Source: an uncultured virus (IMG/VR IMGVR_UViG_3300021255_000141) (taxonomy: Duplodnaviria > Heunggongvirae > Uroviricota > Caudoviricetes). From it: a DNA stretch of 20,000 nucleotides. The notes below the pieces were generated by a model. That model was not told the origin of the DNA, did no database searches, and worked only from the letters and a program-made list of their open reading frames with translations. This document shows, piece after piece, positions 1-15,028 of this stretch. The first letter of the stretch is position 1, and every line of letters starts with the position of its first letter. The stretch is taken from the IMG/VR virus record IMGVR_UViG_3300021255_000141. The stretch is one strand, 5' to 3'. The translations under genes and the position numbers were made by a program.

Positions 1-1
1 T

Positions 2-292
2 TTAATAAAAGATGAATATGGGAATTATTGCGACCCTAAAAATTATGAAACTGATATGGAAGTGCCAAAAGAATACATAATTAAAGAAGCCGATACGATA
101 GAAGAATTATGTGATGGGTTTATTTTTAAAGATACTTGTACAAATAAATTACATTTAGCAGACCTAAACGATGGAATATCTATGTTAGGTGTAGCGTTGT
201 TTGAAGAAACTTTAAGAGGTTTTATAGAAACTGATAAAGGCTTAATCTATGTTGCAAAGATGAACGAGAAAGGAGAATTAGAATTGATATGA
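2..292 (+). CDS. Phage hypothetical protein, probably 5'-truncated by the window edge
   Basis: The frame of ORF 56..292 is open back to position 2. It ends ...TDKGLIYVAKMNEKGELELI with an ATGA overlap into the next gene. Confidence 0.75.
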   Translation, partial: LIKDEYGNYCDPKNYETDMEVPKEYIIKEADTIEELCDGFIFKDTCTNKLHLADLNDGISMLGVALFEETLRGFIETDKGLIYVAKMNEKGELELI

Positions 293-498
293 GTAAATAT
301 GGTGACCATACAAAGAAAGAATTTATAAGTGAACAGTTGGATTATATAAGTTATAAAATATACAATAAAGATTGGTATTATTTAACGCAAGAAGAAAAGG
401 TAGAATTGGTTGGAGTGATACTTTCGATTATATCAGACAATATGATTGGTTATGATGGAAATTTTGAAGAGCCAATGTTAGAAGATAGGAGTGAGTAG
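289..498 (+). CDS. Hypothetical protein ending in EDRSE
   Basis: ORF track; SD AAAGGAG upstream; ends in the DRSE junction motif. Confidence 0.8.
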   Translation: MSKYGDHTKKEFISEQLDYISYKIYNKDWYYLTQEEKVELVGVILSIISDNMIGYDGNFEEPMLEDRSE

Positions 499-501
499 AA
501 T

Positions 502-708
502 ATGTTGTTAAATTCAAAAGATGATTATAAATTATCATTAAAGCAATATAATGTATTATTAAATTATTTTGATTATGAATATGATATTACTGATAATTAT
601 ATAATGCAAAATAATTATGATGAAATAAGTAAAACTATTGGAAAAGTATTAAAGCAAGTAGAACCTCGTTATAATCCTCACGAAGATGATTGGGGTGATA
701 TACAATGA
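502..708 (+). CDS. Hypothetical protein (MLLNSK...)
   Basis: ORF track; start follows the DRSE/SD motif; ATGA overlap with the next gene. Confidence 0.8.
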   Translation: MLLNSKDDYKLSLKQYNVLLNYFDYEYDITDNYIMQNNYDEISKTIGKVLKQVEPRYNPHEDDWGDIQ

Positions 709-1079
709 ATAGATTAACAAGAAAAGCAAAAAATGATGAAACTTATGATTTAGATTATATGACTTGCGAAGGTGATTATTATCCTTTAGGGAATATAGTT
801 GATATAGTTGATAAATTAGGTAAGTTAGAAGATTTGGAAGAACTACTAGGATGTCCGTTAGAAATTGTTATTACACCATATTTTAAAAGAGGTAAGTTAG
901 AAGTATTTTATCATAATAAAATGAGAGAAGTAATTAGAGTTGTAGCCTTTGAAGAAGCAACAAGACCTTATATGGAAATCTTTTATAGGGATAATGAAAA
1001 AGAGAAATTTAAAGTAAAAACAATTTGGTTAGATGATTACAAAAAGACTTGGTGGTTGAAAGAAGATAGGAGTGAATAA
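705..1079 (+). CDS. Modular phage hypothetical protein (KLGxLEDLEE, GCPLE and KTWWLKxDRSE modules)
   Basis: Shares peptide blocks with ORFs at 3337, 5426 and 10194. Confidence 0.85.
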   Translation: MNRLTRKAKNDETYDLDYMTCEGDYYPLGNIVDIVDKLGKLEDLEELLGCPLEIVITPYFKRGKLEVFYHNKMREVIRVVAFEEATRPYMEIFYRDNEKEKFKVKTIWLDDYKKTWWLKEDRSE

Positions 1080-1082
1080 AAG

Positions 1083-1658
1083 ATGAAATTATTATTATAT
1101 TGCACAAAAGCAAAACCCATATTAAGAAAATTCTATAATTATTTTTTAGATAAGCATACTGACAATTATTATTGGAAAAAAGGACAAGTTGCTCCTTATA
1201 ATTTTAATGGCAAAATTGTAGCTGAATGTGATTATGAGGTAGATAGACTATCTAATAATAATATTTATAAAGAATATGTATTAGAACATAATTCTGAATT
1301 ATGGGAAAATGATATTCTTACAAAATCTTGTCTTACTTATGATGAATTAAATAATTATTTAAGTGGTAATGGTTATGCAATCCACATTAAGAACTTGCAT
1401 ATATTTGATGAGCCAAAGAAATTGAGTGAGTATTATTCAATAATAGATATGGGTGGTGGTATGTTAGGAACTAAACCTTTAATAAAAGCACCTCAAAATA
1501 TGATGAGTGTTAGTTCTAATCAATGGGAATATTGTTTTTATAACCCAAATGATATAAACATCTTAATCTCAATTAGACCAGAATGGCTATGCAAAATTCT
1601 AAATGGAGAAAAAACTATTGAGGTTAGAAAGAAAGTGTTAAAGGAGATGATTAGATAA
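1083..1658 (+). CDS. ASCH-domain protein, apparently circularly permuted (copy 1)
   Basis: The ASCH signature ILISIRPEW..KILNGEKTIEVRK (GxKxxExR) is at the C-terminus. LLYCTK, NGKIVAE and GYAIHIKNLHIFD precede it. Confidence 0.8.
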   Translation: MKLLLYCTKAKPILRKFYNYFLDKHTDNYYWKKGQVAPYNFNGKIVAECDYEVDRLSNNNIYKEYVLEHNSELWENDILTKSCLTYDELNNYLSGNGYAIHIKNLHIFDEPKKLSEYYSIIDMGGGMLGTKPLIKAPQNMMSVSSNQWEYCFYNPNDINILISIRPEWLCKILNGEKTIEVRKKVLKEMIR

Positions 1659-1945
1659 TGTATTTTGAACTAATTTTTAAACTAATACTATGTCATTTAT
1701 TAGGTGATTATGTATTACAAATAGATTATTTAGCAAAGACAAAAGGTAATAATTTTTATCATTTACTAGCACATTGTTTTTTATATGCAGTTCCATTTTA
1801 TATATGTTTTGGATTTATATGGCAACTTATACCATTGATTTCTTTACATATAATCATAGATTTATTAAAGGCTAGATATAAGTTAATACCTTATTGGTTA
1901 GACCAATTACTACATTATTTAACTTGTTTATTATATTTAATTTAG
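1658..1945 (+). CDS. DUF3307-like membrane protein (copy 1)
   Basis: Motifs HLLGDYVLQ, LLAH, HIIIDLLK and DQLLH within hydrophobic helices; paralog at 11004. Confidence 0.8.
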   Translation: MYFELIFKLILCHLLGDYVLQIDYLAKTKGNNFYHLLAHCFLYAVPFYICFGFIWQLIPLISLHIIIDLLKARYKLIPYWLDQLLHYLTCLLYLI

Positions 1946-1961
1946 CAAAGGAGATGATAAA

Positions 1962-2387
1962 ATGAGTAAAGAATATTTAGAAGCATTAGAAAAGATTGAA
2001 GAAGTTTTAGATAGTTATAATATAACAAGTTATTGGTTTAAAGAATTAGATAATATCAAACAAGCACTACAACGCCTAAATGCAATAGAAAACTCAAATC
2101 CTAGTGAAGCGATAAAGTGTTTAGAAGAAATATGCAATGATAAGACAATTCATGATTATATACTTTATAATTGTTTAGATGAAGGGTTTACAACTGTAAT
2201 ACATTCTTTACTAAAGGTACAAGATTTAGAAAAAGAAAATGCTTATATTGAAAAACTATTGCAAGTTATAAAACAAGAGTTTAAACTTGAATTATATGCC
2301 ATGTGTAAAAGAAGATTAGAATTAGCAACAAATGCAAATAGAGATAATTTAGAGAAAATATTAGAGTGGTTAAAAAAGGAGGAATAA
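1962..2387 (+). CDS. Modular phage hypothetical protein (MSKE, IKQALQRL..PSEA, EKENA and CKRxLEL..LKKEE modules)
   Basis: Blocks shared with 10194, 5426 and 2635; SD AAAGGAG. Confidence 0.85.
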   Translation: MSKEYLEALEKIEEVLDSYNITSYWFKELDNIKQALQRLNAIENSNPSEAIKCLEEICNDKTIHDYILYNCLDEGFTTVIHSLLKVQDLEKENAYIEKLLQVIKQEFKLELYAMCKRRLELATNANRDNLEKILEWLKKEE

Positions 2388-2389
2388 GC

Positions 2390-2632
2390 ATGACAGCAAG
2401 TGCAATAATATTAGTAGCAAGTTATACAAACGAAAACTGTTTGAATTGTGGTAGGCATAGAGTTGAATTAGTTACGTTAGAAAATGGTCATCAATACAAT
2501 ATTTGTGAAAAGTGTCATTATATAAAAGAGCAAGATAGATATTGCGAATATATAGATATGTCATTTGATTTTACTTCATTTAATAGAAGAGGAAGATTGG
2601 TAAAATGGCTAAAAGAAGATAGGAGTGAATAG
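2390..2632 (+). CDS. Small Zn-ribbon-like protein ending in WLKEDRSE
   Basis: Two CxxC pairs (CLNC, CEKC). ATG 2390 follows SD AGGAGG and is preferred over the track start at 2366. Confidence 0.75.
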   Translation: MTASAIILVASYTNENCLNCGRHRVELVTLENGHQYNICEKCHYIKEQDRYCEYIDMSFDFTSFNRRGRLVKWLKEDRSE

Positions 2633-2634
2633 AG

Positions 2635-3174
2635 ATGCAATGTGGAGATAATCGATTTGAAATTATTGAAAAGGCTAAAAAACATTTAATTAATGCTACT
2701 AATATTAAAGATAGTCCAGAAGAAATGGAAGTTATTGATAGTATTTTATTTAGATGTTGGCAAATGGGTTGGTTAGATAAATATAATAATAAACCTGGTG
2801 AAGCGTTGGAGTATTTAGAACATATTAAAAAAGATGATTTTAATATGATATTAACAACTTATCCGCCATTACCAGCATATAATGGTATAACTAAAGATGA
2901 AATGTTCAATAAAATAGAAGAAACACTTATTAATGCACGAGAAGATAAACGGAAACTTAAAATTTTTAAAGAATCATATAAAGAACAAAATGAAATGCTT
3001 GAAAATTTAGAAGAGCAAGCAAGAGAGCGATTACAAATGTTATTAATAATTAAATTTAAATTCGGTATGGATTTATATGATATTTGTAAAAGAAAATTAG
3101 AATTATGCACTTGTGCTGCTGATAGAAACCCTATTGAAAAAATTATTGAATTTTTAAAAAAGGAGGAAGAATAA
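2635..3174 (+). CDS. Modular phage hypothetical protein sharing its C-terminal module with 1962..2387
   Basis: LYDICKRKLELCTCAADRNPIEKIIEFLKKEEE versus LYAMCKRRLELATNANRDNLEKILEWLKKEE. Confidence 0.85.
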   Translation: MQCGDNRFEIIEKAKKHLINATNIKDSPEEMEVIDSILFRCWQMGWLDKYNNKPGEALEYLEHIKKDDFNMILTTYPPLPAYNGITKDEMFNKIEETLINAREDKRKLKIFKESYKEQNEMLENLEEQARERLQMLLIIKFKFGMDLYDICKRKLELCTCAADRNPIEKIIEFLKKEEE

Positions 3175-3344
3175 TGAAAGGAAGAAGATATTTTATTATA
3201 ATAACTTGGTTTCCATACAATGAATTATTGGAAAATAGAACAACTGTAATAGATGTAGAAGAAAGTATGATAGAGAGATTTATATCTACACTACCTTTAA
3301 GTGAGATTGCAAAAATTAGGGTGGAGGAAAATAATAATGAGTAG
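3174..3344 (+). CDS. 56-aa hypothetical protein (absent from ORF track)
   Basis: Manual translation MKGRRYFIIITWFPY...RVEENNNE*; TAATG coupling; SD AGGAGG; fills the gap between neighbours. Confidence 0.7.
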   Translation: MKGRRYFIIITWFPYNELLENRTTVIDVEESMIERFISTLPLSEIAKIRVEENNNE

Positions 3345-3630
3345 AATTACAAAATTCGAGCCTAGTCCAAATAGTAAATTCCCTTATAAATTAAAAGATG
3401 ATTGTCTTGCAACTGAATTAGATTGTATTCATAAACTAGGCGGACTAGAAGATTTAGAAGAAGAAATGGGTATTATTCCATTAGAAACAATTTTGAACTA
3501 TATAAAAAATGGTTTTACTGATAAAACTGGTAAATATCATAAACAATGCTATTTAACTTATGTAGATAATGAGTGGTGTATTTGTGATTTAATTACTGAT
3601 GAATGTTTTGTATTAAAGGAGATGTTATAA
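3337..3630 (+). CDS. Modular hypothetical protein (MSRIT...KLGGLEDLEE...VLKEML)
   Basis: ATG 3337 follows GGAGG. The N-terminal region resembles the 705 ORF, and the 3' end is identical over 18 nt to the 9153 ORF end. Confidence 0.8.
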   Translation: MSRITKFEPSPNSKFPYKLKDDCLATELDCIHKLGGLEDLEEEMGIIPLETILNYIKNGFTDKTGKYHKQCYLTYVDNEWCICDLITDECFVLKEML

Positions 3631-4209
3631 ATGTATTTAAAAGATTTTACTAATAAAGGGTTTATAGTAACAAAAGAAGATGAAATAAAAGAATCTGATA
3701 AAAGAATATATAGAAGAGTAATGAAAGATGAATTTGAACATATTGAAATTATGAAATGGTTTACAGATGACAAAGATTGGAATGAAGTTAGAGATTATGC
3801 CTATGATAATTATAAGTGTTCATTAGTATGTATTCATAGTGGCTCAGATGGTTCTTACCCTGTTTTAAATAAGTATGCAAAGGGTGAAAGAATTATTCTT
3901 GAACGAGAAGGTATTCAATTATTTATAGAGAAAGATGTAGATACAGATTTTATTTATCAAATTGATATGAATATAAATTATGTAAATGGTGGTGCTGGAA
4001 CTGAAAACTTTTACAGAGCAGAAACATCTACAGATAAAACTACAGTAAATTATGTTCTTGGTTTAATTTTAAAGAAGAAATTTGAACTACTTGAAGAATC
4101 AGATGAGAGATTAGTAGAAGAAATTGAAAAATTACAATCAAGAAATAAATATTATAAAGAGAACTATTCAAAAGGAATAGGATTCTTAATTGATTGTGTT
4201 AGAATTTAG
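3631..4209 (+). CDS. Hypothetical protein
   Basis: 192-aa ORF abutting the previous stop; SD AAAGGAG. Confidence 0.8.
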   Translation: MYLKDFTNKGFIVTKEDEIKESDKRIYRRVMKDEFEHIEIMKWFTDDKDWNEVRDYAYDNYKCSLVCIHSGSDGSYPVLNKYAKGERIILEREGIQLFIEKDVDTDFIYQIDMNINYVNGGAGTENFYRAETSTDKTTVNYVLGLILKKKFELLEESDERLVEEIEKLQSRNKYYKENYSKGIGFLIDCVRI

Positions 4210-4222
4210 GAGAATGTTGTAA

Positions 4223-4393
4223 ATGGAAAAGAAAATAATTGAATTAACTAACAAAGAATTACTTGATTGGGTATCTAAAAATTGTGATTATTATGTTAAG
4301 GATAATTGTTATGGTTGTCCACTTAATATTGATGATAATTGTTATGTAGATATTGAAACAGTAATGAAAACAAGAAAGGTAGAGGTGGAATAA
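4223..4393 (+). CDS. 56-aa Cys-containing hypothetical protein (absent from ORF track)
   Basis: Manual translation MEKKIIELTNKELLDWVSKNC...CYGCPL...C...RKVEVE*; SD AGGAG. Confidence 0.72.
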   Translation: MEKKIIELTNKELLDWVSKNCDYYVKDNCYGCPLNIDDNCYVDIETVMKTRKVEVE

Positions 4394-4395
4394 GA

Positions 4396-4692
4396 ATGAC
4401 ATTTGAAGAAGCAATTAAGCGTTTAAGACAAGAAACAGCACCTGCAACATATTGTCCTGATTTTGATAAGGAAGAATGTTTAAAGGTAATTGAAAAGGAA
4501 CATAAGGCATTAGAGATTATTAAGAAATATTTTAATATTGAATTTAATGAAGAAACAACTTCACAGGGCGATATTTTGGCTAGATTTGTATACATACAAG
4601 GAAAAGAATATGCTAGAAAATGGGATTACGTTGCAGCAGCTGACCTTGTTAATTATCAAGAAGATTTTAAAACGTTAAAGGAAGTGTTGTAA
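4396..4692 (+). CDS. Hypothetical protein (KALEIIKKY...LKEVL type)
   Basis: ORF track; SD GAGGTG; shares EIIKKY and KEV with the 14555 ORF. Confidence 0.8.
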   Translation: MTFEEAIKRLRQETAPATYCPDFDKEECLKVIEKEHKALEIIKKYFNIEFNEETTSQGDILARFVYIQGKEYARKWDYVAAADLVNYQEDFKTLKEVL

Positions 4693-4694
4693 AT

Positions 4695-4775
4695 ATGTTT
4701 TCTATTGGTATATTTTTTGGAATAATAATTGGTGTTGTAATCACAAACATATTATTGAGAGGTGAAAGAAGATGA
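4695..4775 (+). CDS. 26-aa single-TM micropeptide
   Basis: MFSIGIFFGIIIGVVITNILLRGERR*; SD AAGGA; ATGA overlap with the next gene. Confidence 0.6.
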   Translation: MFSIGIFFGIIIGVVITNILLRGERR

Positions 4776-5068
4776 GTAAATATTTATATAGACCTCATTG
4801 TGGTGGGCTTGCTGATGCTATGAAAGAATTAAAAGAATTCAAGTCCAAGTATGAAATGTTAAATTATATTTATAAACATCATTCTTTTGGAGACGAAAAT
4901 TCTATAAAAGATATTACTTTTCATAAATACGCTTCTGGAGATTATAGAATTGGCTGGAAAACCACTTACATAGTATGCAGCAAAGGAAGAGGTGGATGTG
5001 GGTGGTTTACAAAAGATTTGTCTAAGAAGGAAAGTCTTGAAATTTATACTAAATGGTTAAAAAAGTAG
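4772..5068 (+). CDS. Hypothetical protein
   Basis: ORF track; SD GAGGTG; followed by a terminator. Confidence 0.8.
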   Translation: MSKYLYRPHCGGLADAMKELKEFKSKYEMLNYIYKHHSFGDENSIKDITFHKYASGDYRIGWKTTYIVCSKGRGGCGWFTKDLSKKESLEIYTKWLKK

Positions 5069-5094
5069 GAATTTAAAATATTCCTATTTTTTTT
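5059..5094 (+). terminator. Intrinsic terminator, possibly bidirectional
   Basis: Stem TAGGAAT (5066-5072) / ATTCCTA (5080-5086), followed by T8 and preceded by an A-tract. Confidence 0.7.
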
Positions 5095-5106
5095 ATTAAA
5101 AAACTA

Positions 5107-5135
5107 TTGACACTAATTATAAGTAATGATATAAT
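5107..5135 (+). promoter_or_regulatory. Consensus sigmaA/sigma70 promoter with extended -10
   Basis: TTGACA (5107-5112), 17-nt spacer ending TGA, TATAAT (5130-5135). Confidence 0.88.
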
Positions 5136-5166
5136 TTAGTTGTAAAGAGAAAGAGAGGTAGATAAT

Positions 5167-5424
5167 ATGGAGTTAAAATTAACGAATTATCTAGGAGAGG
5201 TTACAAAAATAGTAGATATTAAAGAAGGAGATTATGTACAAATAGACGTAATTACTGGAGACTGGGTTATGCAGTTACCTTTTCATGTTGATACAGCAGA
5301 CGACAGATTAACAGATTATTTTGATGGAAGTGTTAGTTTTATTGCCACAAAAGAAAATGTTGATAAAGTAAATGCATGCAGCAATGAATATGATATTTTA
5401 AATATAAAGTTTGAGGTGATTTAA
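5167..5424 (+). CDS. Hypothetical protein
   Basis: ORF track; SD GAGGT; first gene after the promoter. Confidence 0.8.
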   Translation: MELKLTNYLGEVTKIVDIKEGDYVQIDVITGDWVMQLPFHVDTADDRLTDYFDGSVSFIATKENVDKVNACSNEYDILNIKFEVI

Positions 5425-5425
5425 A

Positions 5426-5971
5426 ATGAAAATTATGAATGAATATTTAGAAACGTTAAGTAATAAAATAAGATATAAAAAAGAATATATTGAAAATGAT
5501 ACATATAGATTATTTATCAAGAAAAACGAACTAGAGTTTTTAGAGAAAGAATTACAAAGATTAGAAACATTAGAAAATGTTAAATCAAACAAAGCATTAG
5601 AACATTTTAAACATTTTGAAAAATGGTATAGAAAATTAAGTTATAATGTTGTAACAACTTATCAATTAGACAAAGATTTAGAAACTATCAAACAAACCTT
5701 ATTCAAATCACAAGAAATGGAAAAGGAAAATGCTAGATATAAACAATTAGAAGAGCAAATAGGTTGTCCATTAGAGGTTAGATGTAAAGTTGTAAGTGAT
5801 AGCCATATTTATGATGAAAACGGAATTGAATATGATGTTGTTTACATTCACAAAGAATATTTTGACTGCGAAGACCCTCTTGACAATGATATAGGTTATA
5901 CTAAACTATGTGCTTTTGAATGGAAAGATTATAAAAAGACTTGGTGGTTAAAAGCCGATAGGAGTGAATAA
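5426..5971 (+). CDS. Modular phage hypothetical protein (LQRLE, EKENA..GCPLE and KTWWLKADRSE modules)
   Basis: Blocks shared with 705, 1962 and 10194. Confidence 0.85.
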   Translation: MKIMNEYLETLSNKIRYKKEYIENDTYRLFIKKNELEFLEKELQRLETLENVKSNKALEHFKHFEKWYRKLSYNVVTTYQLDKDLETIKQTLFKSQEMEKENARYKQLEEQIGCPLEVRCKVVSDSHIYDENGIEYDVVYIHKEYFDCEDPLDNDIGYTKLCAFEWKDYKKTWWLKADRSE

Positions 5972-5974
5972 AAG

Positions 5975-6304
5975 ATGAAATTAAAAGAATATATAGGATA
6001 TGAAAATTGGGAAGAATTATTAGATAAATATGAAAATGAAGATTTTGGTGACGCTGAAGTAAGAAAACATTTTAGAAATGATTTTAATGAAGTTAGTGAA
6101 CTAATGTGGAGATGTTGGACTAAGAAGTTTGATGATATGGATATCAAAGCGTTAGCAGAAGTTTGGTGTTCTGGTATTGAACAAGGTAAAACTATGAAAG
6201 ATACCTATGAAGAAGCGTGTGCTTATTTAGATTATTCAAGTGATAGAATGAATTTCGGTAGATGGATGCGTATCAGAATTTTATTAAATTATGATGTAAA
6301 ATAA
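5975..6304 (+). CDS. Hypothetical protein
   Basis: ORF track; start follows the DRSE motif. Confidence 0.8.
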   Translation: MKLKEYIGYENWEELLDKYENEDFGDAEVRKHFRNDFNEVSELMWRCWTKKFDDMDIKALAEVWCSGIEQGKTMKDTYEEACAYLDYSSDRMNFGRWMRIRILLNYDVK

Positions 6305-6321
6305 AATCAGGAGGAATAGAT

Positions 6322-6639
6322 ATGAACTTACCAAGATTAAATACTTATGTATATATAATTACTTATGTAAATGGTTCACCTTATACCATAACAAAAGATA
6401 AGGTTTATATGAAGAATAAGAAATCATTTATCACAGAAGAAATGTTAAGTGATTGTTTTATACCAGAATTTCCTATGCCACTAAATGTAGATGATTATGG
6501 AAGATACTGGTGTAAATCATTAAAAGAATGTAAAGATATTCTTGAAAAATGGAGACAAGAAGAAATGAAATATTTTGGGAATAAAATAGAACCTTATAAA
6601 CTTAAAAAGATTTCAGATTATTCTTGGAATGTAGAATAA
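6322..6639 (+). CDS. Hypothetical protein
   Basis: ORF track; SD AGGAGG. Confidence 0.8.
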   Translation: MNLPRLNTYVYIITYVNGSPYTITKDKVYMKNKKSFITEEMLSDCFIPEFPMPLNVDDYGRYWCKSLKECKDILEKWRQEEMKYFGNKIEPYKLKKISDYSWNVE

Positions 6640-6655
6640 AGGAGGAGTGATTAAT

Positions 6656-6940
6656 ATGGTAGGTATAACAGAATTCAAGAAGGATTTAAACGCTGTAATA
6701 GGTGATAAAGACCTTTGGATAGATTTATTTTTCCAAGATAAATTTGTAGGAACCATCAGATTTGACAAAGCCAAGAGCAAGAAGCAGGTGATGGATTCAA
6801 TTACAACCGAAAAAGTATCCAACGATTATGATTATGAGAAAGATGATGGTTCCACAGTAGACTACATATCCTTGTGGATAGAGAATGAATTTGGGTACTG
6901 TTATTACATGTTTGATGAATATAAAATAAATTGTTATTAA
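6656..6940 (+). CDS. Hypothetical protein
   Basis: ATG 6656 follows GGAGGAGTGA; the track start is GTG 6647. Confidence 0.75.
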   Translation: MVGITEFKKDLNAVIGDKDLWIDLFFQDKFVGTIRFDKAKSKKQVMDSITTEKVSNDYDYEKDDGSTVDYISLWIENEFGYCYYMFDEYKINCY

Positions 6941-6962
6941 AAGGAGGATAAGAAGAATAGAT

Positions 6963-7150
6963 ATGTTAATAAAAATCAATTTAAATGAATTAATTGAAAC
7001 TGTAGTTGATACAACTGTTGAACATTATGTTGATGATACTGAAGATAGCATGAAATATAGCCACAGAGAAATTCGTGATGAAAGTATTGATGATATGAAA
7101 ATAGTTTAATAAGAAAATTAACTGCAATATTTGAGGATAAGAGTGAATAA
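6963..7150 (+). pseudogene. Frameshifted small gene that would end FEDKSE*
   Basis: The reading from ATG 6963 stops at TAA 7107-7109. Adding one A to the A4 run at 7098-7101 gives ...MKNSLIRKLTAIFEDKSE*, ending at the junction motif 7136-7150. Confidence 0.65.
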
Positions 7151-7151
7151 T

Positions 7152-7399
7152 ATGGAATGGTATCAAATTTTAGTCTTATATTTTCTATTGAAGCATTTAT
7201 AAATGTGACCTTTATTATTATTACAGTAAATGGAGTAGGTTTTAAATATGAATGGGATGTATATGTACCAATGCCTAAAGACTTTAAAGATAACACAGAA
7301 ATGAATTGGCTTGGTTGTGTAGTTTGTTATATACTATTATTTATTTTATTACCAATTCCAAATATTTGTAAACTTGTTTATTGGTTATTTCATATTTAA
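7152..7399 (+). pseudogene. Two-TM membrane protein, probably frameshifted near the N-terminus
   Basis: ATG 7152 directly follows the junction motif and reads MEWYQILV..., then stops at 7202. One extra base near 7174 would join it to the LIFSIEAF... frame of track ORF 7157..7399. Confidence 0.55.
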
Positions 7400-7413
7400 G
7401 GAGGAAATTAATT

Positions 7414-7761
7414 ATGAATAAATTATATTATATAACATTCTCTGAAAAAGAATGTCCACATATCAGAGTTAATGAATATGAAGTTACAGAAAAAGTAAAT
7501 GATACCTATTATGTAAAAATAGGCGATAATGAATATACAGATGATGTTCGTAAATGGGAAATAGATAACTTTGATACAGGATTAAATACTTATGATTCTT
7601 ATGAAGGTGGATATTTTGCTTATATGTGGCTATCAAATAATGATAGGGATAGTATTTTAAAGTTTGAGAATGAAGTTCTTAAAATACTTAATAATAGAAT
7701 AGTTAGATTAAATAATGAAATGGAAAGATTTGAAAAAATGAAAATGTTAGTAGGTGATTAG
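7414..7761 (+). CDS. Hypothetical protein
   Basis: ATG 7414 follows AAGGAGG; the track start is TTG 7381. Confidence 0.8.
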   Translation: MNKLYYITFSEKECPHIRVNEYEVTEKVNDTYYVKIGDNEYTDDVRKWEIDNFDTGLNTYDSYEGGYFAYMWLSNNDRDSILKFENEVLKILNNRIVRLNNEMERFEKMKMLVGD

Positions 7762-7764
7762 AAT

Positions 7765-7950
7765 ATGAATGAATTTTTAAAAAATAACCCATTTATTGTA
7801 GTTGAAAGTGAGGCAACAGATGAAAACCCATTTGCAGAAAATAAAATTAGATTAGCAACGCCAGATGAATTTGGTAAGAAAGTATTAGAACATTTACAGG
7901 ATGAAGATTTTGTGAATATGTTAAAAGATTTTGAAAATAATGAGGTGTGA
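7765..7950 (+). CDS. Hypothetical acidic protein
   Basis: ORF track; SD AGGTGA. Confidence 0.75.
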   Translation: MNEFLKNNPFIVVESEATDENPFAENKIRLATPDEFGKKVLEHLQDEDFVNMLKDFENNEV

Positions 7951-7955
7951 ATTGT

Positions 7956-8156
7956 ATGAGTAAAATAATTAAAGTAAGAATTACATATAATACAGGTTTT
8001 GTCTTAGAAACAAATATGGAAGAAGGCACTTTTGATTATTATGCAAAAAATAGAAATGTTATGTATAATCCTAAATATCCTACTGTAGATGTTAATATAG
8101 GAGATACTGAGTTTATTAGTTTATATGGAGCAGTTAAATTAGAAAGGTGTGAATAA
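7956..8156 (+). CDS. Hypothetical protein ending ERCE (degenerate junction)
   Basis: ATG 7956 follows GAGGTG. Confidence 0.75.
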   Translation: MSKIIKVRITYNTGFVLETNMEEGTFDYYAKNRNVMYNPKYPTVDVNIGDTEFISLYGAVKLERCE

Positions 8157-8158
8157 AA

Positions 8159-8488
8159 ATGACACAAGAAGAAAAAGATAATGCAATAGAAAACAAAGAT
8201 TATCAAGATTTTGTTGATAGATTAATCTGTAATGGTTTTTATTTTAAAATTGATTTAGAAGAGAAAAGAATGTATATCTCTACATATCAACAGAGAGAAG
8301 AAACTTGGAGTGATATAGGATTCCACTATTATGGAAAAGCACAAACTCATTATATTAAAATTAATGATTTAGATGAAGTATCAGATATTATAGGCGATGC
8401 AGTTAGTACTATGAAAGAGTATATGAAAAATGAAACTGCAAAGAAATTAAAAGATGTTATAGTTCATCATTTAGGAAGAAGTGAGTAA
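8159..8488 (+). CDS. Hypothetical protein (MTQEE..., ends GRSE)
   Basis: ORF track; bounded by degenerate junction motifs on both sides. Confidence 0.8.
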   Translation: MTQEEKDNAIENKDYQDFVDRLICNGFYFKIDLEEKRMYISTYQQREETWSDIGFHYYGKAQTHYIKINDLDEVSDIIGDAVSTMKEYMKNETAKKLKDVIVHHLGRSE

Positions 8489-8489
8489 T

Positions 8490-8684
8490 ATGAGTATGAT
8501 AGAAAGAATAATTGCAATGAATAAACAAAGCGAAGATATAAAATTATCTCTTCCCATGTCAGATGGCATGTTGAGAAGAGTTGGTGAGGCTAGTGAAATG
8601 GCTCTTGATGAAAGAATTAAATATCAAAAAGAAACTATGAATAATTTTATTAAATATAAAGGTAAAGGTGGAAGGAAGTTATAA
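8490..8684 (+). CDS. Hypothetical protein
   Basis: ATG 8490 lies 1 nt after the upstream stop; the track start is GTG 8481. Confidence 0.7.
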   Translation: MSMIERIIAMNKQSEDIKLSLPMSDGMLRRVGEASEMALDERIKYQKETMNNFIKYKGKGGRKL

Positions 8685-8687
8685 AAT

Positions 8688-8936
8688 ATGACACAAGAAG
8701 AAATTAAAATTTTAAGTGAAAGTATGGTAGAATCATCTAAATTAGGAGCAGTTAATGCTTTAGGTTATATTAAAGCAGGTTTTGAAGCATACAAGGCAGT
8801 AGAAATACCTATTGCTAATGAGTATAGAAAAAGAATACCTTACAGAGAAGATAAAGAAGTTCAAACATTTATAGACTTTATGCTTGTATATCTTGACGAG
8901 GCAATTAAAAGTTTGGAGAAGAAAAAGAGTGAATAA
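8688..8936 (+). CDS. Hypothetical protein (MTQEE..., ends KKSE)
   Basis: ORF track. Confidence 0.78.
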   Translation: MTQEEIKILSESMVESSKLGAVNALGYIKAGFEAYKAVEIPIANEYRKRIPYREDKEVQTFIDFMLVYLDEAIKSLEKKKSE

Positions 8937-8938
8937 GA

Positions 8939-9169
8939 ATGATTAAGATATTAAAAAAAGGTAAAATACCAAAGCCTACAAAATTAATCTATAAAATAAC
9001 TTGTCCAAACTGTAAATGTAAATTTGAATTTGAGAATGAAGATTGTATTATAGGTAAAGGAATATTTGGAACTATGACAGTAAAATGTCCTTGTTGTCAT
9101 ACAGAAATGACACAACGTCATTTTGACAATAGAATAGTGGAGGTAGATGAAGATGAAAAAGAAAATTAA
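8939..9169 (+). CDS. Small Zn-ribbon protein
   Basis: CPNC...CPCC pairs (ITCPNCKCKFEF...VKCPCC). Confidence 0.78.
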   Translation: MIKILKKGKIPKPTKLIYKITCPNCKCKFEFENEDCIIGKGIFGTMTVKCPCCHTEMTQRHFDNRIVEVDEDEKEN

Positions 9170-9752
9170 AGCATTATTATATTGCACAAAAGCAAAACCT
9201 ATATTAAGAATTGCAAAAGAAGAAATGAAAGGTCAAAAAAGAGCAAGATGTTATATTAAGGAAGAAACTAAATATTTTACTCAATATATAGAAGAAGAAA
9301 TGTATGAGGCAAATGGTAAAATAATTGCCGAATGTGATTATGAGGTTGAGAAGATAATACCTATTAATGTTGATGATGACGATTATAATTACGGACTTAA
9401 TAGTGGTAAAAATCTATTAAAAGAAAGTTGCTTAACTGATTATGATATTTATGAATATTTGAAAGATTATAATGGAGAAACTATTTTTAAAAAAGGTTAT
9501 GCAATACACATTAAGAACTTACATATATTTGATAAGCCAAAGGAATTAAGTAGTTGTTGGGCAAATACAAACGCTTGGATATTTGACAATGAGAAATTAG
9601 ATGTTGCTCCTCAAAATATGAGGTGTTGTGGAGATTGGAATTTGGAAAAAGCAATTTTAATTTCAATTAAACCTGAATGGCTATGTAAAATCCTTAATAG
9701 AGAAAAGACTATTGAGGTTAGAAAGAAAGTATTAAAGGAGATGTTAAAATGA
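9153..9752 (+). CDS. ASCH-domain protein, apparently circularly permuted (copy 2)
   Basis: Paralog of 1083..1658 with C-terminal ILISIKPEWLCKILNREKTIEVRK. ATG 9153 is well spaced from GGAGGT. Confidence 0.8.
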   Translation: MKKKIKALLYCTKAKPILRIAKEEMKGQKRARCYIKEETKYFTQYIEEEMYEANGKIIAECDYEVEKIIPINVDDDDYNYGLNSGKNLLKESCLTDYDIYEYLKDYNGETIFKKGYAIHIKNLHIFDKPKELSSCWANTNAWIFDNEKLDVAPQNMRCCGDWNLEKAILISIKPEWLCKILNREKTIEVRKKVLKEMLK

Positions 9753-10201
9753 ATAAAGAAGAATGGAAAATTATTCAAGATTTCCCTAATTACGAAATAA
9801 GTAATTATGGGAATGTTAGAAAGAATAAAGTTATTATGGCTACAACAAATGATAATGGATATAAGGTTATTTGCTTATATAATAATGGCAAAAGAAAAAA
9901 GATAGGTGTTCATATTCTAGTTGCTAAATATTTTGTTGATGGTTATAAAAAAGGATTAGTTGTTAATCACAAAGATGAAAATAGAGAGAATAATTATTTT
10001 GAAAATTTAGAATGGCTTACAAGAGGTGGTAACGTTCAATATTCATTATCAAGACCTGTGAAATCTATTGATGATAATGGCAATGAAACATATTATAAAT
10101 CAATATCCGAAACAAGATATTATGGATATAGTTATGGTGATGTTCGAAGAGCGTGTGAAACAAAAATAAAACATAAAGGTTTGAGGTGGGAATATGTCTA
10201 A
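9749..10201 (+). CDS. NUMOD4-HNH homing endonuclease
   Basis: NUMOD4 N-terminus EEWKIIQDFPNYEISNYGNVR; HNH core VHILVAKYF...VNHKDENRENNYFENLEW; short C-terminal helical DNA-binding-like tail. Confidence 0.92.
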   Translation: MNKEEWKIIQDFPNYEISNYGNVRKNKVIMATTNDNGYKVICLYNNGKRKKIGVHILVAKYFVDGYKKGLVVNHKDENRENNYFENLEWLTRGGNVQYSLSRPVKSIDDNGNETYYKSISETRYYGYSYGDVRRACETKIKHKGLRWEYV

Positions 10202-10757
10202 AGAATTAGATGCACTAGAAACATTTAACTATATAATGGCTAGATGTAAAGATGAAGATAGTTATATTATAAAATTCCCTTTAGGTATTCAAAAAGGAAC
10301 AACTTTTGGTGAAGATATGGAAAAAGCATATAAGGTTATCAAACAAGCCTTACAAAGACTAGAAGCAATAGATAATGCTAATCCTAGTGAAGCATTGAAG
10401 TGGCTTGAAAAATATAGACTAACTATTTTATTCAATACAAGTATTGTTGAAAATGCCTTAATCAAAGCACAAGAACAAGAAAAGGAAAATGCTAAATATA
10501 GACAGTTAGAAAAAGAACTAGGTTGTCCGTTAGAAATTGTCGGTAGATTATTATTACATAAAGAACGTTATATGTATACTATCGAAAAAAGTAAATTAAC
10601 TGGTGAAGACTTTATGGATAAACACAAAATAGTGGGAGTAAGTGAATTCGGAGTCTGTATTTTAATTACAAATTATATATTAAAAACTGAGCCTAAATAT
10701 TATGAGTGGAATCAATATGGAAAGACTTGGTGGTTGAAACCAGATAGGAGTGAATGA
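10194..10757 (+). CDS. Modular phage hypothetical protein (MSKE, PSEA, EKENA-GCPLE and KTWWLKPDRSE modules)
   Basis: Carries modules seen separately in 705, 1962 and 5426. Confidence 0.85.
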   Translation: MSKELDALETFNYIMARCKDEDSYIIKFPLGIQKGTTFGEDMEKAYKVIKQALQRLEAIDNANPSEALKWLEKYRLTILFNTSIVENALIKAQEQEKENAKYRQLEKELGCPLEIVGRLLLHKERYMYTIEKSKLTGEDFMDKHKIVGVSEFGVCILITNYILKTEPKYYEWNQYGKTWWLKPDRSE

Positions 10758-10759
10758 GT

Positions 10760-10966
10760 ATGACACAAGCAGAAATGAGAGATAAACTTGTAGTATTAGG
10801 TTATCCAGCATTAGATAGTGTATCAGCATTACGATTAACTAATTTTAATTTTGAAGAGGCTAAAGAATTATTAGATTTATACACTACATCAGATATGAAT
10901 ATTGTTTATAAATTATTAAAACTTATGAAAAGAGTAGAAAAATTAGAAAAGGATAGGAGTGAATAG
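10760..10966 (+). CDS. Small protein with a UBA-like three-helix motif, ends KDRSE
   Basis: LVVLGYPALDSVSALRLTNFNFEEAKELL resembles the UBA pattern (L..MGF......AL..t..n.e.A...L). ATG 10760 fits the junction spacing; the track start is 10754. Confidence 0.6.
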   Translation: MTQAEMRDKLVVLGYPALDSVSALRLTNFNFEEAKELLDLYTTSDMNIVYKLLKLMKRVEKLEKDRSE

Positions 10967-11003
10967 AATATGTGGCTAAATTCAAAAAGAGAGGGAATAA
11001 ATA

Positions 11004-11369
11004 ATGATTCAATATTTATTTATAATGATTTGGTGTCACTTAATTGATGACTATGTATTACAAGGGTGTCTAGCCAAAATGAAACAAAAATCTTTTTGGG
11101 AGGAAAATGCACCTGATAAACTTTATAAGCATGATTATCTTATGGCTTTAACATGTCATGCTCTAATGTGGAGCGTTTCAATAATGATTCCCACAATTAT
11201 TAGTGGTAATTTTATTTGGTGGTTAATACCTATTAATTTTATTATTCATTTTGTAGTAGATGATTTAAAAGCAAACAGGCATAAAATTAATTTAATTACA
11301 GACCAAAGTATACATTTTATACAAATTATTTTAACTTTTTTAACTTGCTATATTTGGCTGAAAGGATAA
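11004..11369 (+). CDS. DUF3307-like membrane protein (copy 2)
   Basis: Motifs HLIDDYVLQ, LTCH, HFVVDDLK and DQSIH. Confidence 0.8.
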   Translation: MIQYLFIMIWCHLIDDYVLQGCLAKMKQKSFWEENAPDKLYKHDYLMALTCHALMWSVSIMIPTIISGNFIWWLIPINFIIHFVVDDLKANRHKINLITDQSIHFIQIILTFLTCYIWLKG

Positions 11370-11375
11370 ATATAT

Positions 11376-11621
11376 ATGACAGTAAATGATTTTCCATACA
11401 GAAAGAAATCTACAATGACATGTGTAGAAAGCAAACTTAATAGATACTATATTTTTACCAGGGAAGAAAAAATGGTAATATTTGTAGAAATATTTGAAGG
11501 GGTTACTTATAAAATTTTAAAGGAATTTAAAATTGATACTCGTATTACTCCTTTATCTGATTCACCATTTGCAAATTGGCTTAATAAAAATAAAGTTACA
11601 AAGGTTGATATAGGTTATTAG
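11376..11621 (+). CDS. Hypothetical protein
   Basis: ORF track; SD AAGGA. Confidence 0.72.
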   Translation: MTVNDFPYRKKSTMTCVESKLNRYYIFTREEKMVIFVEIFEGVTYKILKEFKIDTRITPLSDSPFANWLNKNKVTKVDIGY

Positions 11622-11633
11622 GAGGTGAATAAG

Positions 11634-12047
11634 ATGCTAAACTTCGATAATAGAGGATATCATGATTCAATGAATAAATATAGAGGACACAATTTTATAA
11701 ATGCTAAAAATTGGTTTAATGAAATAGAGCCTTTTACATTTAGTTATACTAGACCATGTTTAGATTGGTATGAAACTCAAAAAGTAGAAATTAGGTGGAA
11801 TGATTTTGACGAGTTTAGATTAGAATTGAGATTTGGACCTAGTGTTTGGTTAGTTGGTATAGTTTTATATAGTGATAGAAACGAAATTGAGGAATATCAA
11901 ATAGGAGAGTTTGAACATAAAGAAGATTTAGAAAGATTTATTGAATGGAATAAGAAATTATGTAAAAATGGCGGAACTGCTATTAAAAAAATAACTTGTT
12001 TACATAATGGATTATTTGATTATTTTGATTTAAAGGAGTGGAAATAA
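11634..12047 (+). CDS. Hypothetical protein
   Basis: ATG 11634 follows AGGAGGTGA; the track start is GTG 11625. Confidence 0.8.
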   Translation: MLNFDNRGYHDSMNKYRGHNFINAKNWFNEIEPFTFSYTRPCLDWYETQKVEIRWNDFDEFRLELRFGPSVWLVGIVLYSDRNEIEEYQIGEFEHKEDLERFIEWNKKLCKNGGTAIKKITCLHNGLFDYFDLKEWK

Positions 12048-12049
12048 AT

Positions 12050-12511
12050 ATGAAATATATAAAGCGTTATTTTAATGTATATGATTTTGATAATTTTGAT
12101 TTAACAACAGCAACAGGTACTACAGAATTTGAGAATGATTATTTACCTCGAATAAAATGTAGTATGATTGTAAGAGCAATAGAAGAAGAAAAATTAAATC
12201 AAGATAATACGAACTACATATTTGAGTTTGAAAGAGAATATTGGAGCGAAGAAAGAATATATAATGAAATACATAAATATCCAATCGCAGATGGTAAATA
12301 TCTATATAGAGGTAATTTATATAGAAAAGATTTATTTGAAGAAATGGTATCGAGCAAAAAACCTTTTGATTTGGTAATGAAAATTAAAACTTATGAGGAT
12401 TTAAAAGAAGAGTTTAAATTAGATGAAATGCTTGAAAATCATTATGGAGTAAATACTAGAGGTTTATCCTATAAAGAAAAAGTAGAAATGTATAATAAAT
12501 TTAGGTGGTAA
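12050..12511 (+). CDS. Hypothetical protein
   Basis: ATG 12050 follows AAGGAG. Confidence 0.8.
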   Translation: MKYIKRYFNVYDFDNFDLTTATGTTEFENDYLPRIKCSMIVRAIEEEKLNQDNTNYIFEFEREYWSEERIYNEIHKYPIADGKYLYRGNLYRKDLFEEMVSSKKPFDLVMKIKTYEDLKEEFKLDEMLENHYGVNTRGLSYKEKVEMYNKFRW

Positions 12512-12518
12512 TATAATT

Positions 12519-12740
12519 ATGACAGACATGGAAAAATATAAAAAATTAGAATTTGAAAAAAACAATATTAGAGATTTAATTGACGGTTCATTAAATCGTA
12601 TATCTATTACAGATGATGACGAAGAAAGATATAGACAATTTTATTCTGTATCTAGAAACGCTTTAATTTATATAAAACTAAGTAGGGAGGCTCATGAGTT
12701 ATTTGAGAACATTAATAGAACAAACAAAATACAAAATTAA
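12519..12740 (+). CDS. Hypothetical protein
   Basis: ORF track. Confidence 0.72.
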   Translation: MTDMEKYKKLEFEKNNIRDLIDGSLNRISITDDDEERYRQFYSVSRNALIYIKLSREAHELFENINRTNKIQN

Positions 12741-12996
12741 ATTTCTTGAAGAAAAAAAAGAATCTGAGGGAAGATTATCTATTTTTGATAAATTAGAACT
12801 TGAATATTATCAAAAAGTATTAAAGGAACTTGAGATATCTGATTCCACAGGATATGAGGCAGATGATGTATTCATGGCAATAACTAACAAAAATACTATA
12901 AAATTCTGTGGAGATGCATATTATGGAGAGTTTTCAAAGGATAGTTGGTTAAGGTTCATTAAAGAATGCATAGATGCATATAAAAAACTTAACTAA
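12694..12996 (+). CDS. Hypothetical protein
   Basis: ORF track; SD GGGAGG; overlaps the previous gene by 47 nt. Confidence 0.72.
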   Translation: MSYLRTLIEQTKYKIKFLEEKKESEGRLSIFDKLELEYYQKVLKELEISDSTGYEADDVFMAITNKNTIKFCGDAYYGEFSKDSWLRFIKECIDAYKKLN

Positions 12997-13001
12997 AATT
13001 A

Positions 13002-13030
13002 TTGACATATTATATAACATTTGTTATAAT
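13002..13030 (+). promoter_or_regulatory. Consensus sigmaA/sigma70 promoter with extended -10
   Basis: TTGACA (13002-13007), 17-nt spacer ending TGT, TATAAT (13025-13030). Confidence 0.88.
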
Positions 13031-13059
13031 AATAGTATAGAGATTGGAGGAAAGAAAAA

Positions 13060-13221
13060 ATGTTAAAAAGTGTATTATATATAATTCTTATGACACTTAT
13101 TTTTATTGGAATCACACTATTAGTTCTTTTTATATCAGGGTGGTTTGCGTTGTTATTTATTTTATTAACAGCAGTAAATGGATTAGTATTTTATAAGGTA
13201 ATGAAGGAAAAGGAGCAATAA
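13060..13221 (+). CDS. 53-aa two-TM membrane protein (absent from ORF track)
   Basis: MLKSVLYIILMTLIFIGITLLVLFISGWFALLFILLTAVNGLVFYKVMKEKEQ*; SD GGAGG; first gene after the promoter. Confidence 0.75.
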   Translation: MLKSVLYIILMTLIFIGITLLVLFISGWFALLFILLTAVNGLVFYKVMKEKEQ

Positions 13222-13224
13222 AAC

Positions 13225-13920
13225 ATGGACGCAAGAAAAGAAATAGAATTAGCAATTAAAAAAGAAAATCCTAATTGGGACGGAAAGACATTTGATTATG
13301 GCTGCAATATTTATGAAAATGTATTAGAATGCTACGAGGCAATTCAACCTATAATCGAGAAGGCAGGTCATAGTGGAATGTCTTATGGAATGTTTTGTAA
13401 TATTTTTAAAAGATTATTAGACGGTAAAGTGTTAACTCCACTTACTGATGATGATTTTGATGAAGAGCCTGACTGGGAGGATACAGACGGAAGTAAACAT
13501 TATCAATCAAATAGATATTCAGCATTTTTCAAAAGTGTAGATAAAAAAGGTAATGTATCATACAGTGATAATGAAAGAATTGTTTCTATAGACCAATATG
13601 GAATGAGTTGGCATAGTGGAGCAACAGAAAGAGAATGCTGGGATTTAATTCCACAAATTACTCTTCCTTATATGCCGCTTGATAAACCTATTAAAATTTA
13701 TCGTTGGGAATTTTCTTACGATAAAGCAACAGGGTCTATTTACAAGGAAAGAGGACAATTTAATGGTGAATATATCGATAGAATTGTTTTTCCAGACGGC
13801 AACGTTGTAAAGGTTAATAGACTTTTCATCGATGACGAGCCTAGAAAAATAAATAAAAGCCTTTTCAAAAGATTAGAGGCGTTTATTAAAGAGGATGTGA
13901 AGGAATTTGAAAAGAATTAG
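13225..13920 (+). CDS. Phage hypothetical protein with a GHSGxS...LTPLT motif
   Basis: 231-aa ORF; SD AAGGAG. The motif is familiar from uncharacterised phage proteins; function unknown. Confidence 0.8.
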   Translation: MDARKEIELAIKKENPNWDGKTFDYGCNIYENVLECYEAIQPIIEKAGHSGMSYGMFCNIFKRLLDGKVLTPLTDDDFDEEPDWEDTDGSKHYQSNRYSAFFKSVDKKGNVSYSDNERIVSIDQYGMSWHSGATERECWDLIPQITLPYMPLDKPIKIYRWEFSYDKATGSIYKERGQFNGEYIDRIVFPDGNVVKVNRLFIDDEPRKINKSLFKRLEAFIKEDVKEFEKN

Positions 13921-14197
13921 TTTATTAATTTTAACTATTATATCTTTATTTTCATTATCATCATGTAAACTTCCTGCAAAGGTCGATTATACTAGAACTA
14001 ACTCAACTGTTAGAGTTGAAAGTGTAATTGTATACAAGGATTCTTATTCAAATTATAAAACATCATTCTCAGAATCAGACAGTGTAAAACTTTATTTTAA
14101 TCCTGATAAAAAATGTTTAAAAATAGTTACTAAGGATTCTAAAACACAATATTATTATTTTAGTGAAGATGAAACATTAAAAGTTATTTATAAGTAG
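13907..14197 (+). CDS. Putative lipoprotein
   Basis: MKR, hydrophobic stretch, lipobox-like LSSC (Cys20); TTG start. Confidence 0.75.
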   Translation: MKRISLLILTIISLFSLSSCKLPAKVDYTRTNSTVRVESVIVYKDSYSNYKTSFSESDSVKLYFNPDKKCLKIVTKDSKTQYYYFSEDETLKVIYK

Positions 14198-14207
14198 GCG
14201 AAAAAAA

Positions 14208-14833: not shown

Positions 14834-15027
14834 CAAAAAAACAAATAGGCAGTGAGGACAAATTAACTCAATACGCAATAGGATTCTCTGATATCCCTGA
14901 GGGTGCCGAGGTCGAGGTAATACAGAGACGATTTGTAAATTATTATGGAGTCTGGGTTATCGTCAGATATAACGGCAGAATCTATTATACATCAGAGGAC
15001 AATTTAAAATTCGAGGAGGAGAATTAA
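14818..15027 (+). CDS. Small protein, possible SH3-like beta-barrel
   Basis: IPEGAEVEVI...WVIVRYNGRIYYT...NL resembles the bacterial SH3 pattern; SD AAGGAGGT. Confidence 0.55.
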   Translation: MQRAVTKKQIGSEDKLTQYAIGFSDIPEGAEVEVIQRRFVNYYGVWVIVRYNGRIYYTSEDNLKFEEEN

Positions 15028-15028
15028 A

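Follow-up and report, generated by a model that had tools for sequence, protein, structure and literature searches.

Here, we present an analysis of a recurring gene end in a 20,000-nucleotide stretch of DNA from an uncultured virus (IMG/VR record IMGVR_UViG_3300021255_000141), which we refer to as the window and which belongs to a tailed phage with a portal gene at 18048 (phrog_533). The element is a purine-rich, non-palindromic motif of 15 nt that encodes the C-terminal residues DRSE and a stop codon and lies directly upstream of the next start codon in an array of small accessory genes. We found that this motif is a DNA-level block common by descent. It also forms the 3' end of a large family of mosaic paralogs, and we consider it probable that it is a boundary sequence exported from this family by short-homology recombination, and not an integron-like connector as the first-pass annotation of the window had proposed.

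Matches to GATAGGAGTGARTRR occur six times in the window, all on the + strand, and in none of 200 dinucleotide shuffles. All six exact copies consist of GATAGGAGTGAR plus a stop codon and form an in-frame gene end (DRSE*); the genes start at 289, 705, 2390, 5426, 10194, and 10760, and an ATG follows the stop codon after 3, 3, 2, 3, 2, and 3 nt, respectively. Degenerate sites at 7136, 8142, 8474, and 8922 have an ATG 1-2 nt downstream. These counts agree with the first-pass annotation in the six gene ends, the distance of 1-3 nt between stop codon and ATG, and the lack of an exact copy past 11 kb of the window; its four degenerate gene ends are all present as sites, but the copy at 7136 ends no intact gene. 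In the same phage, the 19.8 kb upstream of the window (record G001, identical to the window over 1-16607) contains no copy with ≤1 mismatch allowed, and the motif is present at only approximately 10 of the 33 junctions of the array. The copies are as follows:

484..498, + strand: exact copy; ends gene 289 as a captured tail; 36 nt in common with the copy at 10952, reaching into the head of the next gene
1065..1079, + strand: exact copy; end of the mosaic-family paralog 705
2618..2632, + strand: exact copy; ends the Cys-motif gene 2390 as a captured tail; 92% identity over 26 nt to 1053-1078
5957..5971, + strand: exact copy; ends paralog 5426 and shares a 57-nt repeat with the copy at 1065
10743..10757, + strand: exact copy; end of paralog 10194
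10952..10966, + strand: exact copy; ends gene 10760, one homolog of which ends in ...LLENKSE
7136..7150, + strand: DKSE-type copy, the commonest form among relatives; in another frame than gene 6963, which stops at 7109
8142..8156, + strand: degenerate copy, ERCE*
8474..8488, + strand: degenerate copy, GRSE*
8922..8936, + strand: degenerate copy, KKSE*

In a relative's contig, a single gap spans window positions 6963-7150, where the stop codon of gene 6963 lies 41 nt ahead of the DKSE copy.

Three of the six exact copies end paralogs (genes 705, 5426, and 10194), and these genes have repeats in common at the middle node and at the tail node of 45 nt. The family follows a plan in which the constant nodes RLT, LEDLEEELGCPLE, and YKKTWWLKED[KR]SE surround two variable segments, V1 and V2. 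The first-pass annotation had recognized three modular paralogs but underrated the motif as the 3' end of a giant mosaic family. In the window, the paralogs and their nodes are:

705..1079, + strand: mosaic-family paralog 1; RLT head, V1, middle node, V2, tail node; no Pfam or PHROG match
5426..5971, + strand: mosaic-family paralog 2; different head, middle node, V2, tail node
10194..10757, + strand: mosaic-family paralog 3; MSKELDALE head, middle node, V2, tail node
834..868, + strand: middle node (LEELLGCPLEIV); natural recombinants cross over between it and 10506-10540
5747..5781, + strand: middle node copy
10506..10540, + strand: middle node copy
1035..1079, also 5927-5971 and 10713-10757, + strand: full tail node (DYKKTWWLKEDRSE*, 45 nt), the putative donor of the junctions

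Based on a profile search, the family comprises 1,934 clusters at 50% identity (E ≤ 0.001). A homolog search returned 203 proteins, and among the 120 listed, 97 end in D[KR]SE (65 DKSE and 32 DRSE); among further members, 70 of 125 have this end and 55 have others. Of 122 proteins, 113 could be split, giving 73 V1 types and 73 V2 types in 107 combinations, with V2 in common in 7 of 74 same-V1 pairs and three four-way cycles; these counts come from a protein database clustered at 90%, from which near-identical pairs are removed. V1 and V2 are in near-free combination between the constant nodes, and the internal nodes are the clearest crossover sites. Consistently, intragenic recombination is directly visible: in locus L214, the head of gene 705 is joined to the V2 segment of gene 10194 at the middle node, and middle-node recombinants comprise L214/P0029 and contigs from one sample (runs X2 and X3). 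A structure model of the family consists of a helix and, after it, a small beta domain (predicted local distance difference test score, 66.7; predicted template modeling score, 0.43), for which Foldseek gave no match at E ≤ 0.001; the V2 segment of this model matches SH3/KOW/Tudor domains weakly (best Z of 3.6 over 39-44 residues), and a WYL/SH3-like fold is no more than a lead. Gene 705 had no tblastn match in a collection of cultured phages, and locus searches with single proteins returned one relative apiece.

For a comparison of gene ends, the window was pooled with 11 fetched records and 62 de-duplicated loci, giving 2,334 unique gene ends; genes were called with our own chain of open reading frames (+ strand or two-strand) rather than with a trained gene finder, and family tails were classified with a regular expression that mislabels a few rows. 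D[KR]SE ends 95 of these genes, 60 from the family and 35 unrelated to it. At these ends, codons are nearly fixed (Lys AAG in 57/59, Arg AGG in 35/36, and Ser AGY in 95/95) versus a gene-interior background of 30% AAG, 7% AGG, and 41% AGY. Moreover, out-of-frame or intergenic copies of the motif are found in G012, L270 (two), L234, and at 7136 in the window. The very high conservation of the family's peptide end could be taken to indicate that D[KR]SE is selected as a C-terminal sorting or stability tag; we find this hardly credible, as noncoding copies exist, 55 of the 125 family members end otherwise, and synonymous codons are free in 11 interior occurrences of D[KR]SE. On the strength of the codon fixation at gene ends, we reject selection at the peptide level.

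AGGAG-TGA is a good Firmicutes-type Shine-Dalgarno sequence (SD), and its overlap with a stop codon could repeatedly give RSE* by convergence. This would agree with the strong pairing of the DRSE form with the anti-SD (-11.4), with the SD-coded peptides (KEML, KEE, and EV) that end many other window genes, and with the single occurrences of the pattern in unrelated viral contigs. However, of the 102 ends built on ARG AGY GAR, 92 have Asp directly ahead of this core and not one has Glu, even though a Glu codon would pair better with the canonical anti-SD, and identity extends to the left of the SD. Likewise, the DKSE form pairs weakly, with a median of -5.6 kcal/mol versus -9.3 kcal/mol at other close junctions, or -8.5 kcal/mol for a bulged duplex in a longer window; all duplex energies were calculated with the canonical anti-SD, which may differ from that of the host. 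Finally, the motif followed by ATG is present in only 93 stretches in a scan of the whole of IMG/VR, where the GAA variant was more frequent than its listed matches show, and in a single one of the 106 genomes from the putative host family, an assignment that is itself only a hint. Altogether, the fixed rare codons, the out-of-frame copies, the often weak SD, and the near absence from putative hosts argue that the motif spread by descent; SD convergence is largely refuted and, in our estimate, very unlikely. The first-pass annotation had named equal frequency of the motif at core and host junctions as fatal to its proposal; the motif is nearly absent from the putative host genomes, and its flanks are conserved beyond an SD-only expectation in the left tract, the Asp residue, and the codons.

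The motif is absent from replication and structural genes, and start codons within 2 mismatches of it make up 41 of 434 in the accessory set and 0 of 927 elsewhere, a partly circular comparison because closeness to the motif was itself the criterion for counting a start as accessory. Another gene was used to find 20 non-duplicate loci; of these, 5 have such starts and 15 have none, and DKSE is tied as the commonest gene ending (5/649); therefore, the motif is lineage-limited, with the window at the high end. We considered whether the motif is kept by selection, either for recognition by a translational activator, repressor, or endoribonuclease of the phage or for special re-initiation at middle genes, with recombination only spreading it. 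Such a site would explain why codons are fixed in DKSE despite its weak SD while the better-pairing ERSE form is found in 0/102 ends, why the motif is absent from replication and structural genes and from 105/106 genomes of the putative host family, and why its placement resembles that of the start-associated sequences (SAS) discussed below, whose consensus also contains GATAGGAG (PMC3203893). Nevertheless, we regard this explanation as rather unlikely: the motif has no fixed tie to particular downstream genes, copy numbers range from 0 to 7 per stretch with none in 15 of the 20 independent loci, the bulged longer duplex is perhaps an adequate SD with an anti-SD that may not be the host's, and no candidate factor was identified. 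Within the window, the R form accounts for 6/7 copies versus 34% elsewhere (p = 0.008), and R/K forms are concordant inside 22 loci (p = 0.013; p = 0.095 without the window), which suggests local copying, weakly so once the window is left out.

How the motif probably came to end unrelated genes is suggested by their left flanks and homologs. To the left of the SD core, 42 non-family tails match family tails over 6.4 nt, compared with 0.85 nt in a control set of 1,843 other gene ends; counted leftward from the Asp codon, the figures are 5.2 versus 2.3 nt. The homologs of gene 2390 (4/4) and gene 289 (2/2) lack the tail; among these homologs, two end in WLKENKE and one in MLKEK, and the window genes change to DRSE directly after a native, donor-like WLKE or ML[KE] patch. 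Several other gene families are polymorphic for the tail, which is present in some phages and absent in others. The genes concerned are:

289..498, + strand: gene 289, 69 amino acids, unrelated to the family; DRSE end in 0/2 homologs
2390..2632, + strand: gene 2390, 80 amino acids, CxxC, unrelated to the family; DRSE end in 0/4 homologs
10760..10966, + strand: gene 10760, 68 amino acids, unrelated to the family, with a DRSE tail
10970..11047, + strand: 25-codon stub that begins like gene 502; overlaps gene 11004, for which a separate SD is present

The three non-paralog carriers are unrelated, as the first-pass annotation had it, but its label "UBA-like" has no Pfam match, and for gene 2390 a sub-threshold match to NMD3 is all that Pfam returns. 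Nor are all downstream genes unrelated: after the motif, the stub at 10970 and gene 502 are identical at 19 of 21 nt, and genes 1083 and 5975 have 12 nt in common directly after the motif. The repeats in the window run either left, in the paralogs, or right into the head of the following gene, and the 36 nt shared by the copies ending at 498 and 10966 leave a 25-codon stub at 10970.

We suggest a model in which the motif, as the last 15 nt of the ~45-nt constant 3' node YKKTWWLKED[KR]SE*, would double as SD and spacer for the next gene. Short-homology recombination between co-infecting relatives or within a genome could use any shared patch, including nodes of 35-60 nt, A/G-rich gene ends (TTAAAAGAA and AAGGA), and gene heads comprising stop codon, spacer, and ATG. 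Where an unrelated gene natively has an L-K/E-E patch, a crossover there into the tail of the donor would graft D[KR]SE* and a coupled start onto it, while a crossover at the ATG would place a new gene behind the motif; selection, likely for coupling, would retain products with a whole gene, a stop codon, and a usable start. According to this model, the motif outnumbers all other joints owing to the sheer size of its donor family and not through recognition by a machine. The enzyme is probably a phage Sak4-like annealase together with SSB, or host functions.

In record G001, a Sak4-like annealase (phrog_124; E = 2.6e-43) and an SSB (phrog_378) are encoded ~10-12 kb upstream of the window, and Sak4 with its SSB anneals single strands (PMC5928155). 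The first-pass annotation saw no recombinase in the window and proposed looking for an annealase or a site-specific recombinase elsewhere in the genome; indeed, the window has none, and this annealase is what lies upstream. Tyrosine and serine recombinases (PF00589 and PF00239) were absent in 5/5 records, including the complete, motif-bearing G009 (the window's own record is ~50% complete). The six junction regions fold no better than shuffles (z of -1.2 to +2.5, with RNA parameters and on the top strand only). With no attC-like fold at the six junctions and no integrase in the five records, the likeness to integrons probably does not hold. Perfect TTGACA-17-TATAAT promoters with an extended -10 TG are located at 5107-5135 and 13002-13030, within the accessory operon and away from the motif; other promoter matches were at chance level, and the repeat has no terminator stem-loop. 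Folding and promoter scans of the window rule out the motif as a hairpin, promoter, or terminator.

Gene order in the accessory operon is shuffled near saturation, and all junction types break. The motif is used as a joint, one of many, and tests for enriched breakage gave mixed results over five forms. With a strict motif definition, the neighbor was kept in 1/19 motif and 6/118 non-motif junction pairs (p = 1). In a close relative with pieces ~95-97% identical (by our reading of the 24 listed of 1,484 contig pieces), 6/7 observed motif junctions and 10/12 others were broken. A wider definition gave 1/25 versus 9/28 kept, but this p value of 0.013 rests on four junctions of one near-identical pair (L227/L229). 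After dropping this pair and L246/L248, 0/24 motif and 4/22 non-motif junctions were kept (p = 0.045), a result that leans toward the first-pass annotation but is null when stratified by locus pair (p ~0.55). In an enlarged set, which likewise leaves out both pairs, 0/39 motif junctions and 21 non-motif junctions were kept, a strong pooled difference that is confounded because 18 of the latter come from four motif-free loci; without these loci, the counts are 0/39 versus 3/≤69.

In genes with a changed upstream neighbor, the shared upstream sequence is bimodal: 18/54 pairs keep ≥10 nt versus 2.7% at random, approximately 12 of these 18 being motif-like by eye, and the remaining pairs cross at the ATG. 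Five pairs (L271/L242, L251/L215, L261/L270, L274/L256, and G015/G007) keep the motif junction while the upstream gene differs. At neighbor changes, pairs with the motif in both members show no significant excess over six permutation settings (p of 0.056-0.37), with 3 observed versus 2.67 expected in the strict set. The close relative has gene 502 behind a different SD and gene 3631, which is not a motif gene in the window, behind a DKSE copy; its 8488-to-7955 join uses 8 shared bases at gene starts. No joint between two motif copies was found among the 15 of 109 joints listed, in assembled contigs only; the read-derived contigs come from three runs, ≤2 samples, and one study, and one is possibly the source of the window. 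Other recurring joints are MKLLL, MSKEL, and MKKKI heads and FDLLK-type tails, and the same downstream family has the motif ahead of it in some phages and other junctions in most.

The first-pass annotation had explained the motif as a privileged standard connector that permits cassette-like insertion, excision, and swapping by motif-by-motif recombination. Relatives do swap genes at the motif, in most cases against a junction of another type, and the five pairs with a preserved motif junction, the 18/54 pairs, the 0/24 versus 4/22 and 0/39 counts, and the partly circular 41/434 versus 0/927 starts would be in line with this. However, non-motif junctions are broken almost as often, in the strict test and in the close relative alike, and the lack of an excess of both-motif pairs, the null stratified test, the origin of 18/21 kept non-motif junctions in motif-free loci, the other junction types and the gene-start join in the close relative, and the absence of copy-to-copy joints among those listed all argue that the motif is not the standard connector; we consider this explanation unlikely.

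Several points also weigh against export from the mosaic family. Most loci were recovered via the family tail, which inflates the motif counts, and in L347 and L352 captured tails occur with no family gene in the fetched stretch. The direction of transfer, likely from the family to other genes, is drawn from tract decay and outgroup homologs rather than from a tree, and the left-tract signal could reflect selection on a longer functional motif. G009 and G012 encode an exonuclease and an unknown gene in place of Sak4; accordingly, Sak4 is not required. A real excess of breakage at motif junctions is possible, with 0/39 kept. Finally, phage mosaicism is driven by relaxed homologous recombination, for which the minimum cited in the case of Red-beta is ~30 bp (PMC3945230), and motif tracts of 15-27 nt fall short of this length. 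Because the nodes of 35-60 nt fit the ~30-bp minimum and the bare 15-mer does not, we suggest that, under export from the family, selection probably preserved captures that arose as rarer events at microhomology.

Among known systems, the closest is the boundary-sequence model, in which short conserved sequences lie at phage mosaic junctions, as for the 18-residue C-terminus shared by genes 67 and 68 of Island3 (PMC3233612 and PMC3029335). There as here, short homology at gene ends serves general recombination at module junctions in different phages, and a new gene shares its neighbor's C-terminal residues and DNA; unlike there, the shared end occurs here on dozens of unrelated families in many phages, has one giant mosaic family as its probable source, and includes the stop codon, SD, and next start. 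The promoter(early) stem-loop elements (PeSLs) of T4-type hyperplastic regions are ~100-bp intergenic units of promoter and stem-loop with demonstrated minicircles (Arbiol et al. 2010; PMC2839356). Both repeats lie in hypervariable regions of small, non-essential genes that are gained, lost, and replaced, with no dedicated recombinase; in contrast, the present motif is 15-45 nt, coding, and lacks a sigma-70 promoter, hairpin, or terminator, and no circle was seen among the listed joints. The SAS of cluster K mycobacteriophages (PMC3203893) are similarly non-palindromic, in one orientation, a few nt ahead of an ATG, with AGGAG (GATAGGAG in both), near non-structural genes, and absent from the host, which here is a hint only. 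However, SAS and extended SAS tend to stay with the downstream gene family, whereas our motif consists of the last codons of the upstream gene, travels mostly with that gene, is not conserved by downstream family, and lacks inverted repeats. In T-even gp38, conserved motifs flank interchangeable hypervariable segments (PMC3157838), a design shared by the donor family, which differs from this single-copy virion adhesin in being multicopy and in a non-structural operon; the likeness is one of design. Integron arrays also are rows of unrelated small genes with a recurring joint, but they differ in the attC hairpin, in their integrase, of which none was found in the five records examined here, and in that the motif occupies only ~10/33 junctions. 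Literature searches, which covered few subscription papers, returned no paper on this motif or family and only work on PeSLs, SAS, boundary sequences, and annealases.

Upstream of the window, G001 encodes a terminase, primase, helicase, dUTPase, the Sak4-like annealing protein, and SSB. The phage occurs in animal-gut metagenome runs, and relatives occur in two genome bins titled uncultured Firmicutes and uncultured Acholeplasmatales; the host is therefore only hinted at. G009, G012, and G013 have the same layout, with motif copies clustered in the small-gene operon adjoining the portal module. The terminase large subunit gene (L299:15583-17139, G001) is part of the replication module; ~20 kb that include the accessory array separate it from the portal gene, and G009 has the same order. 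Within the window, we noted two phrog_3136 paralogs with conserved blocks and variable inserts (1083-1658 and 9147-9752; MKLLLYCTK...EWLCKILN...KKVLKEM), a second node-and-insert family found at 23 loci in viral contigs; genes with single modules of the mosaic system (1962-2387, 2635-3174, and 3337-3630), namely an MSKEYLEAL head, an NPSEA block, and an RIT...LEDLEEEMG head without tail node; two DUF3307 membrane proteins (1658-1945 and 11004-11369); a NUMOD4-HNH homing endonuclease gene within the array (9749-10201); Tad3, a type I Thoeris inhibitor (13225-13920; PF25185, 68 bits, cut-off 27), with homologous DNA in L039 and L215; and a Sigma70 region 4 fused to an RNA polymerase alpha-CTD-like domain (15930-16406). 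By eye, base usage appears different from ~14.9 to 16.4 kb, and 16477-16579 is AT-rich and non-coding with an internal inverted match, possibly an origin or genome-end element. Downstream of the portal module, L313:207-11916 (G016) is a convergent region of ~25 small genes, mostly with long spacers between them that resemble promoter/terminator units.

The whole case is a variant of boundary-sequence mosaicism, of which the combinatorial donor family is the most striking part. It touches the long-standing question of why phage mosaic junctions match gene boundaries, by targeted short homology or by random joins filtered by selection, and the clade offers a marker that can be traced: the tail is rare, its codons are fixed, and its acquisition can be dated gene by gene against homologs. 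We suggest that boundary sequences may originate by export from the constant end of a multicopy gene family. More tentatively, and against the odds as we see them, the nodes (heads, middle, and D[KR]SE tail) might be evolved joints of a recombinase-independent combinatorial library that reassorts half and whole genes in frame and coupled, with a self-propagating tail homogenized per genome and with head/barrel combinations forming a diversified, host-interacting (e.g., counter-defense) family. With its ~1,900 clusters and halves that recombine freely, this unannotated family may be diversifying in an arms race.

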